Source of the DNA: Coraliomargaritaceae bacterium
Lineage (GTDB): Bacteria; Verrucomicrobiota; Verrucomicrobiia; Opitutales; Coraliomargaritaceae
Length of the DNA stretch: 64,000 nt
Assembly: GCA_965656495.1 (NCBI GenBank)
Contig: CBFHKU010000005.1
Span: 70,853 to 134,852 of the forward strand
Direction of reading: 5' to 3'
Below the pieces are notes generated by a model, which saw only the letters and a program-made list of their open reading frames with translations, was not told where the DNA came from and did no database searches. This document shows, one piece after another, positions 33,316-37,611 of the stretch (position 1 is its first letter; each line of letters opens with the position of its first letter). The position numbers were made by a program, and so were the translations under genes.

Positions 33316-34287
33316 ATGCCAACGCCACGCGAGCTTGACGTCCAAGCCCTCATCGAGGGGGTCCGCGCCAATGACCGCGCCCGCCTTGCGCAGGCCATTA
33401 CCCTCGTCGAGAGCCGCGCCCCCCGTCACGCCCAGGCCGCGCACGCCCTCATGCAGGCGCTCCTCCCGCACAGCGGCGGCGCCCTCCGCCTCGGCCTCAC
33501 CGGCGTCCCCGGCGCCGGCAAGAGCACCTTTATCGAAGCCCTCGGGATACATCTCTGCAGCCTCGGCAAAAAAGTCGCGGTCCTCGCGGTCGATCCCAGC
33601 AGTTCCGTGCACGGCGGCAGCATCCTCGGCGATAAAACCCGCATGGAAACCCTCTGCCGTGAACCCAATGCCTTCATCCGACCCTCACCCTCCGGCGACA
33701 GCCCCGGCGGGGTCGCCGCCCGCACCCGCGAAGCCCTCCTCATTTGCGAAGCCGCCGGATACGATGTCATCCTCGTTGAAACCGTCGGAGTCGGGCAGGG
33801 CGAAACCGCGGTTCGCACCATGACCGATTGCTTCCTCCTCCTTCAAATCACCGGCGCCGGAGACGCCCTTCAGGGAATCAAAAAAGGCATCGTCGAACTC
33901 GCCGACCTTATCGTCATCAACAAAGCCGACGGCGACAACACCACTCCCGCCGAACTCGCCCGCGCCGAATACGAACGCCTCCTCCAAATCCTCCAACCCT
34001 TCACCCCCGGCTGGAAACCCCGCGCCGCCACCTGTTCCGCCCTCCATAAAAACGGCATCGACACCATCTGGGAACTCGTCGAGACCTTCCGCGCCGAGAC
34101 CCAACAAAGCGGCGTCTTCAAGGAACGCCGTCAGGCACAGAACCTCGACTGGTTCAACACCCGCCTCCAACAAGCCGTCATGGAAGACTTCAAACAAAAA
34201 CACGCCCAACGCCTCACCGAAACCCAAACCGCCGTCGCCCAAGGCACACTCCCCGTCGCCGTCGCACTGCAACAAATGCTGGGGTAG
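33316..34287 (+). CDS. meaB: Methylmalonyl-CoA mutase-associated GTPase MeaB
   Basis: GVPGAGKST, AVDPSS, GGSILGDKTRM, VETVGVGQ, NKAD. Confidence 0.96.
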   Translation: MPTPRELDVQALIEGVRANDRARLAQAITLVESRAPRHAQAAHALMQALLPHSGGALRLGLTGVPGAGKSTFIEALGIHLCSLGKKVAVLAVDPSSSVHGGSILGDKTRMETLCREPNAFIRPSPSGDSPGGVAARTREALLICEAAGYDVILVETVGVGQGETAVRTMTDCFLLLQITGAGDALQGIKKGIVELADLIVINKADGDNTTPAELARAEYERLLQILQPFTPGWKPRAATCSALHKNGIDTIWELVETFRAETQQSGVFKERRQAQNLDWFNTRLQQAVMEDFKQKHAQRLTETQTAVAQGTLPVAVALQQMLG

Positions 34288-34288
34288 G
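33995..34288 (+). repeat. 294-bp direct repeat, copy 1 (3' end of intact meaB)
   Basis: Matches 36509-36802 except GGCACACTC vs GGCGAACTC (2 nt). Confidence 0.97.
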
Positions 34289-34347
34289 GGGCAAAATTTT
34301 GTTCAATGGCGGCTACCGCGTTGTGATTTTGAGGGTTCGTTTCCTTC

Positions 34348-34404
34348 TGTGAAGGTCGAGGATGAGGGACGGCGAATGCCGTTACCATTATCGACTTTTT
34401 GGGC
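34348..34404 (-). mobile_element. Degenerate integron attC-like site overlapping the methyltransferase stop
   Basis: Minus strand GCCCAAA-AAGTCGATAATGGTAACGGC-ATTC-GCCGTCCCTCATCCTCGAC-CTTCACA: bulged hairpin bounded by R''-like and R'-like boxes, both core triplets altered. Confidence 0.65.
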
Positions 34405-35341
34405 TCAGCTTTTGTTTCTTTTGCCTGAGGTACATGGCCCGCTCCTCCAGAACTCTATCGATTCCTGCCATCCATTCTAAATTTCGCCCAATTACTAGCT
34501 CTGTCATCGCTGCGTGATGTGTGTTTTTCATCGCAATAGGCTTGGCTTGCAAACAATGTATTCTAGCTAGTTCTTTAACTTCTGGAGCGTTATCATACGT
34601 CATGATGAAGTCCCCTGACAATTCAGAACACACTGAAAAGAGTCTTTCGTGATCTAGCCTTGAATGAGTGTATAGACGACTGCCTGCCTTCTTGCCTCCC
34701 GCGGTGTAGGGGGGGTCGATAAAGAAAACTGCATCTTTATCCTTCTTTTTCTCTTCTAGAACTTCAAAAGCATCCCGACACTCAAACGACAAACGTGTCC
34801 GAATCAGATCAATATTCCGCATTCTTTTTGCTAGAGTGGATGGATACCATCTAGACAATATTCCCTTTCCTGCCTCTCCATTTTTAAGAAATCCAGAACC
34901 AGCAGCTAGAATTCCTCCATGAAATGTTCGATTCTTAATAATGGTCTGAAAGGCAATTTCTCGAGATGATCGTCTGCTTGAAGCGAGAGCATCAATCGCA
35001 TTCTCTTTCGTCATCTCGAAATTTAATATCCTCGATGCAAGCCACCCAGCATCTCCTCCAACTAGGGTCTCCCATACTGCAGCAATCTCTCTGTCTAGTT
35101 CTATCAGATGGGCTTCATCGACTAGGTTCTCGGAAACTGATGTTAGGGAAACAATACCTCCTCCTGCAAATGGCTCTACCAAGCGCTTTGGTTTTTGTGG
35201 CTGGCTCAAAAGCCATTCCCTTAAGCGAGGGATAAACCAAGTCTTTCCTCCAGGGTAACGAAATGGGCTCAATTGAGGAACAGAGGCCACATTCACTGCC
35301 TTTGGGAGTTCAATATCTTCACTGAATAAGAGCTTCTGCAT
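34388..35341 (-). CDS. Dam/D12-class amino-methyltransferase of a type II R-M system
   Basis: SPFRYPGGK, EPFAGGG (motif I), FIDPPY (motif IV); lower GC than flanks. Confidence 0.92.
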   Translation of the reverse strand: MQKLLFSEDIELPKAVNVASVPQLSPFRYPGGKTWFIPRLREWLLSQPQKPKRLVEPFAGGGIVSLTSVSENLVDEAHLIELDREIAAVWETLVGGDAGWLASRILNFEMTKENAIDALASSRRSSREIAFQTIIKNRTFHGGILAAGSGFLKNGEAGKGILSRWYPSTLAKRMRNIDLIRTRLSFECRDAFEVLEEKKKDKDAVFFIDPPYTAGGKKAGSRLYTHSRLDHERLFSVCSELSGDFIMTYDNAPEVKELARIHCLQAKPIAMKNTHHAAMTELVIGRNLEWMAGIDRVLEERAMYLRQKKQKLSPKSR

Positions 35342-35344
35342 ATC

Positions 35345-36223
35345 TTAGTTACCAAAGGGAGATTCGATCGACTTATTCTCTGGAGGATTCTCCAACTTCT
35401 CATCAACCTTCGATTGGAGGATCTTCAAAAACTTCTCTATTTTCCCAACTTTGGGACGTGTAATTCTATTCAGAGCATCTGAAAACTTGGTATATACGGT
35501 CTCAACTCTCTGTAGCTCAAATGACCGACCTTCACGATCTACCAAGTCATAAATTAACCATGACATGTCTGCATCTTCTTTGGGTACTTGCTCCAAATCC
35601 GGAAGTGTCTCGAAAAATGCAAGGTCTAGCGCTACCGCCATCTTTTTCTTCCATGCATTCAAGATCCCACCCTTGAATATCAACTGAGGCGCAAGGCGCT
35701 TACGAGATGATGAGAGAAAATCTGGCCTTGGGTAATTCGGCTGCTCAGTCCAGTCCATATCTGCGTTTTTGCGACAGTCTGCCATGTAGTGTGCGAATGG
35801 GTCTCGAACATTTCCAGAAATATAGACTGCTTGAATCTCAAGCGATCCAAAGTCGTAGACTTGTCCCTTCTCATCATAAGCGACTAGAACAACATCAATA
35901 TTTCCTGCGGACTTGCCGTAGTAGTCTGTAAGCCTTACTTCGGTTAGCGATGTCCATGTCGCATTTTCTCCGAAAAAGAAATCCGCAGCATCATCTGCGA
36001 TAAGCCAATTTTCTCGGAATCTTACTGGACATGTGATCACGGGTCTATTCCCATGCATAACGCTGCAAACGCCTAGAGGATTCTTAGCTTTATCTTTTGT
36101 GCAGCTTGGAACCTTATTATTGAAGGGGCATAACCGGTTTTTTCGAAAACGCTGTGCTCTCGCTGACATTTCCGTGGGGATATGCCCAAATACTTCTGCC
36201 AAGGGATGCTGAGTTTCTTTCAT
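35345..36223 (-). CDS. NotI-family type II restriction endonuclease
   Basis: N-terminal Cys4 pattern (CPF...CTK...GVCSV...TCPVRF), EVRL...GNIDVVL...LEIQAVYISG nuclease core, RPDFLSSSRKRLAPQL; 3 bp from the MTase. Confidence 0.85.
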   Translation of the reverse strand: MKETQHPLAEVFGHIPTEMSARAQRFRKNRLCPFNNKVPSCTKDKAKNPLGVCSVMHGNRPVITCPVRFRENWLIADDAADFFFGENATWTSLTEVRLTDYYGKSAGNIDVVLVAYDEKGQVYDFGSLEIQAVYISGNVRDPFAHYMADCRKNADMDWTEQPNYPRPDFLSSSRKRLAPQLIFKGGILNAWKKKMAVALDLAFFETLPDLEQVPKEDADMSWLIYDLVDREGRSFELQRVETVYTKFSDALNRITRPKVGKIEKFLKILQSKVDEKLENPPENKSIESPFGN

Positions 36224-36273
36224 TCCTACTTTATTGTGCGAGCGATTTTACGGGCTTGCGACACTTAAATTTT

Positions 36274-36339
36274 GCCCAACTTGTTAATGTGACATATAGA
36301 GGGGTAGCCTCGGAATTAATCACATCCAACTGGTAGTGA
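36274..36339 (-). mobile_element. Integron attC-like site between the truncated membrane-protein gene and the R-M pair
   Basis: Minus strand TCACTAC-CAGTTGGATGTGATTAATTCCGAGG-CTAC-CCCTCTATATGTCACATTAACAA-GTTGGGC: starts just after a TGA stop, forms a bulged hairpin, ends in canonical GTTRRRY. Confidence 0.7.
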
Positions 36340-36342
36340 TAT

Positions 36343-36510
36343 TCATTTTGTGCAGAAGGTCTCTAGTGTGGACCAAAGAAAAAGAATGCCATAAAGTGCT
36401 GCTAAAATCCAAGGAACATTTATCTCGGTATGGGTGAAAGGTAGATATTTCTCCGGATTCTTTCCTTCTCCAAGCCCTTTCCATTCATCTTTGAATAACT
36501 GGAGAGGTAA
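36343..36510 (-). pseudogene. C-terminal fragment (~55 aa) of a small membrane protein, RipA/octameric-membrane-protein-like
   Basis: LPLQLFKDEWKGLGEGKNPEKYLPFTHTEINVPWILAALYGILFLWS...*; low GC; 5' part replaced by the meaB copy. Family recognised from memory of the motif. Confidence 0.6.
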
Positions 36511-36802
36511 CCCTTCACCCCCGGCTGGAAACCCCGCGCCGCCACCTGTTCCGCCCTCCATAAAAACGGCATCGACACCATCTGGGAACTCGTCGAGACC
36601 TTCCGCGCCGAGACCCAACAAAGCGGCGTCTTCAAGGAACGCCGTCAGGCACAGAACCTCGACTGGTTCAACACCCGCCTCCAACAAGCCGTCATGGAAG
36701 ACTTCAAACAAAAACACGCCCAACGCCTCACCGAAACCCAAACCGCCGTCGCCCAAGGCGAACTCCCCGTCGCCGTCGCACTGCAACAAATGCTGGGGTA
36801 GG
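36509..36802 (+). pseudogene. meaB: Duplicated 3' fragment of meaB (294-bp direct repeat, copy 2)
   Basis: 292/294 identical to 33995-34288, including the TAG stop; no start codon context. Confidence 0.95.
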
Positions 36803-36806
36803 TTTT

Positions 36807-36900
36807 TTATTTCTTCTCTTCGAGATTAATAAACTCAAAGCGACCAACTTTTAGTAGATTTTCGCGGGCCTCATCAGCAAGTTTACTTGTCTCAGGAGTA
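36807..36900 (-). pseudogene. Possible C-terminal gene remnant convergent on the meaB copy
   Basis: Open frame ...TPETSKLADEARENLLKVGRFEFINLEEKK* in low-GC DNA, cut off upstream by repeat DNA. Confidence 0.35.
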
Positions 36901-37026
36901 TCGCTTCTACGCTTCCAAGGTTCAACTAACAACTTTCAAGCCCACAATCACTCCGTGCCCTTGGTGCCTCGGTGGTGAATGAACTGCAGGAACCACGAAT
37001 GAGGGAGAGTAAGATTAAGATTAAGA
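36901..37026. repeat. 80-bp dispersed repeat copy 2 plus (TAAGAT)n motif
   Basis: 36901-36980 matches 20587-20666; 37005-37026 is the reverse complement of 20473-20494 (21/22). Confidence 0.88.
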
Positions 37027-37032
37027 GTGAGG

Positions 37033-37611
37033 TTAATCTTTTGTGACGAGGGAGCGGACGCGGAAGAAGCGTTTGGCGCGACCTTTGCCGTAGGCGCCGG
37101 AGTCGGCGGGGGTCCAAGTGATGAGGTCTTCGCTGGATTCGAGGATGATTTCGACGGGGCCGGAGGAATCGGCGGGGATCACGACGGTATTTTTCGGGAT
37201 GACCTCGCTTTGACTTATCTCGGTGATTTTGAGAACGGTGAAGGCTTTGGATTCGCTGCCGGTATTTGCCCAGAGATGAATATCGAGCGGACCGGCAAAG
37301 GTGGGAAGGGCGGCAAGGGGAATATCATCGGCTTCGAGGGTAATAGAGAAGGGGTATGCTTCGGTGAGACCGTCCATTTGGATGTAGGCGCTTTTATGGG
37401 GCGGGGTGCCCTTGCCATCCTTCATTTCGAGTACGATCATTTCAGCGAGATAGCCTTCGGGGATGTGGATCTCGGAGAGTCCTTGGCTTTCATAGCCCGA
37501 AGCGAGGGTGAGGTAGGGCGGCAAGGTCTCGTCATCTTCCGTGCCAGTGGCAATTCCAAGCATGCCAAAGAGCATGCCCAAGAGGAGTATCGCGCTGCCT
37601 GTCCTTTTCAT
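37033..37611 (-). CDS. Secreted hypothetical protein
   Basis: Signal peptide; C-terminal ILESSEDLITWTP...KRFFRVR. Confidence 0.75.
   Translation of the reverse strand: MKRTGSAILLLGMLFGMLGIATGTEDDETLPPYLTLASGYESQGLSEIHIPEGYLAEMIVLEMKDGKGTPPHKSAYIQMDGLTEAYPFSITLEADDIPLAALPTFAGPLDIHLWANTGSESKAFTVLKITEISQSEVIPKNTVVIPADSSGPVEIILESSEDLITWTPADSGAYGKGRAKRFFRVRSLVTKD

Follow-up and report, generated by a model that had tools for sequence, protein, structure and literature searches.

A restriction-modification pair enclosed by a duplicated meaB tail in a Coraliomargaritaceae bacterium, with probable entry by host homologous recombination

The end of the gene meaB, stop codon included, recurs behind an intact copy of the gene in a 64,000-nt stretch of a Coraliomargaritaceae genome (GenBank assembly GCA_965656495.1, contig CBFHKU010000005.1, positions 70,853 to 134,852; hereafter the window), and a predicted restriction-modification (R-M) pair lies between the two tails. 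We propose, at a probability of about 0.6, that the R-M pair came to lie behind meaB through an insertion that duplicated 294 bp of the gene tail and involved no integrase, and that host homologous recombination is the likely route both of its entry and of its present spread. The structure of the locus, a joint shared between lineages, variable cargo, empty sites at sibling loci and a polarity of the repeat edges are directly observed. The process is confined neither to R-M cargo nor to meaB. An earlier note on this DNA had proposed an integrase-free entry by recombination that leaves meaB whole, and the evidence assembled here supports that proposal.

A repeat search of the window finds a two-copy direct repeat of 294 nt at 33995-34288 and 36509-36802, with a spacing of 2514 and 99% identity, which spans the final 293 bp of meaB including the stop and 1 nt beyond. 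The two mismatches are adjacent, at 34246-34247, and give a Thr codon in the gene copy and a Glu codon in the stranded copy. When the whole genome (G000; 2.06 Mb, 31 contigs, 99% complete) was compared with itself by BLAST, the meaB tail segment was again a two-copy repeat at E 1e-149, far beyond chance, so that the recurrence at 2514 bp with two mismatches, as first described, is confirmed by both searches. The features of the locus, in window coordinates, are:

33316..34287, plus strand: meaB, methylmalonyl-CoA mutase-associated GTPase, 323 aa, intact (Pfam MeaB, E 1e-106; NCBIfam PRK09435 equivalog, 464 bits against a cut-off of 329)
33995..34288, plus strand: repeat copy 1, the meaB end with stop and 1 nt; Thr codon allele, the same as in the congener G006
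34388..35341, minus strand: D12-class (Dam-like) DNA methyltransferase, 317 aa (Pfam PF02086 MethyltransfD12, E 5e-14; PADLOC models MTase_II and PD-Lambda-5_B)
35345..36223, minus strand: NotI-family restriction endonuclease homologue, 292 aa, reading frame intact (Pfam PF12183, E 9e-61; PADLOC REase_II)
36343..36510, minus strand: 3' remnant of an 8xMP (PF24838) membrane-protein gene, 55 codons, covering only profile positions 91-135 of 136 and severed at the cargo-to-tail joint
36509..36516, no strand assigned: inferred microhomology at the novel joint, the first 8 nt of the repeat, which on the minus strand encode E-G-L
36509..36802, plus strand: repeat copy 2, the stranded meaB tail; Glu codon allele, the same as in G001, G004 and G005

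The cargo between the copies is 2,220 bp long and has a GC content of 0.442, against 0.645 for meaB, and all three of its genes lie on the minus strand. Motif I at residue 56 and DPPY at residue 209 of the methyltransferase are both intact, and with both frames and motifs preserved the pair is predicted to be a type II R-M system. The 8xMP gene retains its 3' third, full-length relatives being 152-155 aa. Pfam, PADLOC and base composition thus bear out the first description of a low-GC block of 2.2 kb with an R-M pair and a truncated membrane-protein gene, convergent to meaB. That description had added that neither an integrase nor a transposase is present. The first part stands: a profile search for the tyrosine-recombinase domain PF00589 gives four matches in the genome and none on this contig, and tblastn of the four proteins against the window returns only noise at E 0.2-0.9, with no integrase remnant. 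The second part is judged from the open reading frames (ORFs) of 28-42 kb, none of which resembles a transposase, no separate profile search of transposase families having been made.

The cargo-to-tail joint is shared with other lineages. In sequencing run X17 the cargo has 14 differences from the window in 2,161 nt (99.4% identity), its flank is of G006 type, and it joins a tail with G006-type bases at the same position as in the window. A protein encoded on a 3,010-bp ENA contig (P0001) is the same tail/8xMP chimera but carries the tail substitutions of the G006 sister type, and its tail ends where X17 forks. The joint is therefore common to lineages separated by 9 differences in the 294-nt tail. 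The Thr/Glu codon is an allele pair polymorphic within the genus, which together with the joint on a sister-type tail argues that recombination refreshes the copies. The earlier reading of near-identity as the mark of a recent event is unsafe, because the mismatches are this genus-wide pair and the joint occurs also on the sister-type tail. As a separate observation, the sister-type stranded tail in P0001 and X17 seems to stop after 248 bp, at window 34242/34243, and the sequence beyond it was found neither in G000 nor in the fetched loci.

What follows meaB varies among relatives. In G006, whose meaB is 96% identical, another low-GC block with a KAP NTPase lies behind the gene; G001 and G005 have a sulfatase there, and runs X17 and X20 contain G006-type sequence after the meaB stop. 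The R-M pair itself is present in two of 100 other genomes of the family. The alignment proposed in the earlier note has thus turned up different cargo in relatives rather than one fixed arrangement. The same note had seen in the gene's 3' end a docking site for recombination, and a dedicated role of this kind is not supported: a meaB tail match exists in 156 of 401 genomes of the order (two matches are listed in three of them), and among those 156 the stranded tail stands beside the gene in G000 only, the second match of G230 not being listed, and the order as a whole does not use meaB as a dedicated dock. Scans for exact meaB tail motifs gave no hit in metagenome contigs and none in viral contigs; we give them no weight.

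Part of the stretch is contained in 20 of 24 listed sequencing runs, from six studies, and seven runs were examined, all as short-read contigs. Depths in X3 (flank 29.9, cargo 30.3, repeat 60.5) match the prediction for one integrated copy. In X5 a contig spanning exactly the 294 nt has a depth of 17.9 (17.4 expected), with flank at 10.9 and cargo at 6.5, and these depths fit a mix of filled chromosomes and single-tail, cargo-free chromosomes; one X13 contig omits exactly 2514 nt. The X5 depths and the X13 skip together indicate that single-tail chromosomes exist in natural populations, as had been anticipated. The amplification suggested alongside was not seen, the cargo depth never exceeding the flank depth in the seven runs; incomplete cargo cover in X8, X13, X17 and X20 was not counted as cargo absence. 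In X3 and X5 contigs end at each of the four junctions; coming from the cargo, one X11 contig crosses the joint and extends 47 nt into the tail, and contigs of X3, X5 and X17 stop 30 nt into it, which is the unitig overlap. The cargo-to-tail joint is seen in runs of four studies and in the sister-species-type contig, and its recurrence outside this assembly, checked on short-read contigs, means that it is not an assembly artefact of collapsed strains.

The same geometry recurs elsewhere in the genome. Self-comparison yields 38 low-copy direct-repeat pairs, and in a windowed test 10 of 25 such pairs had the order gene end, cargo, stranded gene end, where 2.5 were expected (binomial p 8e-5); the crude gene caller of this test missed meaB itself and counted a leuB site. 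The earlier expectation that other core-gene ends would be duplicated is met by about ten further sites. Among ten listed sites the 3' repeat edge falls 0-2 nt past the stop in five (null 8 in 2,000,000) and 0-11 nt past it in seven (null 55 in 2,000,000), the null being drawn under our own rule for admitting sites; the 5' edges lie 31-293 nt upstream with no common motif by eye. The targets include chorismate-binding (menF-like), parA, trpA, ACT-domain, sugar isomerase and DUF445 genes. A complete R-M pair is enclosed at meaB only; elsewhere the cargo is mostly non-R-M, namely Lamassu with GmrSD and HipA, Clp-protease-like, RND efflux, AAA/DUF4143, PIN and lectin-domain proteins, or proteins of unknown kind. 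Eight further sites were compared in five congeners. Precise single-copy empty sites were found for the DUF445 gene in all five, for parA in three and for the ACT-domain gene in G006, and at these three sites the stranded copy is the resident original. The insert is also missing at the menF-like site in G002, at lepA in G003 and G005, and at the FmdB-like site in G002 and G005. The isomerase site was uninformative in the five because its target gene went unmatched, and the trpA site because contigs end or diverge. In the congener G002 no gene-tail pair occurs among two repeat pairs in 37 windows (740 kb). In G012 four of five repeat pairs in 20 windows came up as candidate gene-tail scars, but three of these consist of paralogous surface-protein genes in arrays and one sits in a nucleotidyltransferase/toxin-antitoxin island; they were not counted.

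Several of these sites merit description for themselves. A 74-bp tail duplication of the chorismate-binding gene encloses 9.4 kb at G000:C7:9459-18975 (L235) with a complete Lamassu system (LmuA, LmuC, LmuB), GmrSD/HEC-05, a type IIG/PglX fragment and HipA, and further low-GC genes past the stranded tail suggest stacked cargo. At G000:C8:8272-9446 (L241) insertion altered the C-terminus of the DUF445 protein, and the stranded copy keeps the end conserved in all five congeners. An entire RND efflux operon lies behind a 32-bp tail duplication of the ACT-domain gene at G000:C1:344441-351279 (L237), for which G006 has the exact empty site. The same kind of scar stands at a gene start at G000:C4:89816-90973 (L239), where a 197-bp duplication of the lepA 5' end and promoter surrounds a lectin-domain surface-protein gene. 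Repeated 5' starts of one gene, which we take to be glucose-1-phosphate thymidylyltransferase-like, occur at G000:C3:59609-62992 (L320) with small cargo between. Integrase-free islets with partial duplications and toxin-antitoxin-like or AAA cargo lie behind tRNA-Gly and tRNA-Leu and beside tRNA-Pro (G000:C1:169115-173820, C6:84738-85399 and C2:196773-198451).

The R-M pair is found in other settings as well. We collected 160 related loci, 80 from metagenomes and 80 from genomes, some of them the same DNA; the methyltransferase adjoins a NotI-family endonuclease in 151 of them, with gene order conserved. Of the 59 loci flanked by more than 4 kb on each side, seven are enclosed by a direct repeat of at least 25 bp. 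In a gammaproteobacterial metagenome-assembled genome (MAG), the same R-M family lies behind a 154-bp, 90%-identical duplication of the parC tail (L160). The cargo there (L160:6873-9956) also has an IrrE/CapP-like peptidase, and both parC copies keep the stop, like two alleles. The closest named loci, in Opitutales and Puniceicoccaceae MAGs (81-89%), hold the pair alone between unrelated core genes. The few repeat-enclosed loci and the solitary closest ones together suggest that the pair is mobile by several routes, with the long duplication in the minority.

Other identities were considered for the cargo and set aside. The 148-aa ORF at 36343-36789 was taken to be spurious, a product of the 8xMP remnant running on into meaB antisense sequence. 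PD-lambda-5 needs components A and B; the methyltransferase matches PD-Lambda-5_B (E 9e-40) and the endonuclease matches REase_II only. A regex scan, run with no covariance model, found no attC core pair (RYYYAAC...GTTRRRY) of an integron cassette on either strand of 33901-37100. Among palindromes the lowest values were those of CCGCGG at 0.41 and CGGCCG at 0.44, an avoidance that cannot be credited to an enzyme so rare and so recently moved. A sequence search of PDB at E 0.1 gave no match for the endonuclease. Immediately to the right of the stranded tail, window 36893-37007 belongs to a multicopy intergenic repeat family of the genome, and between the tail and glmS lies a gene for a predicted secreted protein of 192 aa (37033-37611), conserved in G006 and G001 and with no match in Pfam, NCBIfam or PADLOC.

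We present a model in which the first step would have taken place in a lineage that carried the R-M pair directly after meaB. There, a fragment that began within meaB and finished within the 8xMP gene would have had its ends closed, as a circle or as a tandem-duplication joint, at about 8 nt of microhomology, creating the joint 36508/36509 and beheading 8xMP. The closure at microhomology is suggested by sequence comparison: the closest full-length 8xMP (78% identical) has E-G-L at the residues where the repeat-encoded part of the chimera has E-G-L, and of some 965 positions on the antisense strand of meaB six have an 8-mer compatible with E-G-L, the joint among them. A full-length donor gene was sought among 401 genomes of the order, of which only G000 matched 8xMP, and none of the 160 R-M loci carries the 8xMP fragment. 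A single RecA crossover in the tail could then have put the tail and cargo into a recipient, which would leave meaB whole, the cargo directly behind its stop, and a second tail followed by the recipient's own downstream DNA; a tandem-duplication joint followed by allele replacement would give the same product. Third, the module would pass to other strains and sister species, gaining the recipient's tail allele, a step for which the sharing of the joint is observed. With the joint in place, meaB supplies both homology arms, so that transfer could proceed whatever lies downstream and a host-type tail would follow the joint. Finally, the module may be lost when the two copies cross over or when an empty allele replaces it, which would produce the single-tail alleles that the depths indicate. 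Post-segregational killing by type II R-M systems is established and would oppose loss of the cargo. A laboratory precedent exists in Escherichia coli, where linear DNA with one homologous arm closed into a circle and integrated by a single crossover, with duplications of 109-950 bp in 56 of 60 clones by PCR (PMC3240628).

Some findings weigh against this model. The microhomology rests on one homologue, and two others have E-K-L and E-Q-L. An exact empty meaB site occurs in no genome, and the right flank (36803-37032) was not found in the six congeners; for the empty site that the earlier note had called for there is thus the indication from the runs and none from those genomes. Contig depth is a rough measure and X3 is possibly the source of this DNA, the X13 skip is explicable as an assembler path through the repeat given low-depth cargo pieces in X13, and in X17 the repeat depth is 39.5 where 54.8 would be expected. 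Three of the ten listed sites have a repeat that ends 7-23 nt before the stop, with the C-terminus altered, and the end of homology at the stop therefore does not account for every site. At the menF-like, lepA and FmdB-like sites the relatives' flank fits the gene copy and not the stranded one, a pattern that would fit stacked cargo. No enclosing repeat is present at the four closest named R-M loci. Finally, comEC is present in six of seven and dprA in seven of seven genomes of the genus, but also in 10 and 11 of 14 control genomes, and genes so widespread do not demonstrate natural transformation.

It is unlikely that the endonuclease itself drove the insertion by cutting the chromosome, with repair synthesis copying the 294-bp target around the incoming genes. 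The cargo is indeed an R-M pair and the class of such insertions was defined on R-M systems, whose authors suggest double-strand breakage as the common cause (PMC2853133), and at the DUF445 site both edges look illegitimate. Most of the look-alike duplications in this genome, however, enclose no restriction enzyme, the copies often differ as alleles do (Thr/Glu at meaB, 90% at the L160 parC tail) and not as fresh copies would, and a direct repeat was found around only the seven of 59 well-flanked loci of the family.

Improbable, too, is a remnant of an integrase element that replaced the 3' end of its target in the manner of e14 at icd, with its integrase deleted or acting in trans. Although the length of the repeat, which the earlier note set against an att core, is real, length alone does not rule out an integrase origin: at the far end of e14 a C-terminal fragment, icdC, is left behind (PMC13626634), so integrase elements can make long tail duplications, and two tyrosine recombinases that do not look like Xer are encoded in the genome, next to tmRNA and tRNA-Ser. 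Against this, the window holds no integrase or remnant by PF00589 and tblastn, ten unrelated targets share no common core by eye and have 5' edges that range from 31 to 293 nt, meaB is not reused across the 156 genomes, the joint cuts through a gene, and the tail motif was in no viral contig, a scan given no weight.

The restriction of the meaB tail duplication to the G000 lineage, and a low cargo depth in most runs that could mean loss only, would also suit a one-off unequal recombination between versions of a variable locus, leaving an immobile fossil scar that is only being lost. We regard this as decidedly improbable, as the joint with 99.4%-identical cargo on a sister-type tail needs a transfer after the joint had formed. 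Least probable by far is that strains collapsed in assembly produced the structure, or that a 2514-bp circle exists free next to a chromosome without the cargo, for although short-read graphs cannot separate an integrated copy from a circle plus an empty site, and none of the contigs examined crosses the whole stretch, this is opposed by the four junctions in X3 and X5, the X3 cargo depth equal to the flank with the repeat at twice that, and the joint in runs of four studies.

The locus is a clean and unremarkable instance of a class that was described in 2000-2010. The insertion of R-M genes with long target duplication was reportedly described earlier by Nobusato et al. in 2000. In Furuta, Abe and Kobayashi 2010 (PMC2853133) the listed repeats measure 24-423 bp, and often cover a start or a stop codon without disrupting the target gene; the class is defined by R and M genes, an insert of <20 kb, unique direct repeats of >30 bp and no mobility gene. 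The meaB locus has R and M homologues in a 2,220-bp insert, a two-copy repeat whose 294 bp are no oddity within that range, and no PF00589 on the contig; as for an empty site, none exists in the six congeners and the X5 depths and X13 skip indicate single-tail chromosomes. The earlier note had placed the class in Helicobacter: the class is real and the locus fits it, but it has been published beyond Helicobacter (PMC2853133). Our locus differs from those in belonging to a marine lineage outside the published list, in having the scar also around non-R-M cargo at about ten sites, and in coming with population data in which joints are shared across sister lineages.

The mechanism of the class was left open, with breaks made by R-M enzymes and a virus-like cycle hypothesised and release and infection unshown (PMC2853133). 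To this class the present genome adds about ten further gene-tail duplications, mostly with non-R-M cargo, in which the 3' edges cluster at stops and the 5' edges vary. It offers a test case: most sites hold nuclease-free cargo, congeners have empty sites, the joint can be read, and filled, empty and alternative alleles occur in natural populations, a combination that favours plain recombination. We suggest tentatively, at somewhat less than even odds, that long target duplication is a general, cargo-blind and integrase-free form of gene flow in which any accessory block that gains a joint to a core gene's tail becomes a portable cassette with both arms in that gene. Such flow would cross species borders at about 96% identity, add new blocks behind cargo already present and account for much of the traffic in defence genes in lineages like this one, where the density is about 6 sites per Mb, against none in 0.74 Mb of a congener. 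If it is general, island finders based on integrases overlook a share of defence gene traffic. Our literature search, whose coverage left out most subscription papers, found no paper extending the class to non-R-M cargo, and nothing relevant on 8xMP among the papers listed.

Other known systems share parts of this arrangement. The gene pair and its order are those of type II R-M pairs of a NotI-family enzyme and a D12 methyltransferase, as in the 151 of 160 related loci. The prophage e14 encodes an integrase. Compared with gene-tail elements of the e14/icd type, the meaB locus has no integrase in or beside it and no recurrent target with a fixed core. The likeness to e14 lies in cargo of a defence type that has the whole gene on one side and a stranded copy of its 3' end on the other, recombination between the copies giving a hybrid gene end, and the difference in a 15-kb prophage as against the integrase-free meaB cargo (PMC13626634). 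The H47 island of E. coli likewise has cargo between long direct repeats, no recombinase of its own and excision by host functions such as the model would allow at meaB, although its repeats are imperfect and of 144-148 bp, its excision is RecA-independent, and the meaB cargo is known from short-read contigs only (PMC5426353); the 'unconventional circularizable structures', compared by name alone, show the same likeness. The E. coli single-crossover system of PMC3240628 differs in being a laboratory conjugation with an engineered plasmid, and homology-facilitated illegitimate recombination (HFIR) proper yields deletions rather than duplications, its joints typically having 3-10 bp of microhomology. 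Single-crossover integration in that system nonetheless shares with the meaB locus one edge fixed at the end of homology and another that varies at the illegitimate joint (PMC3240628).

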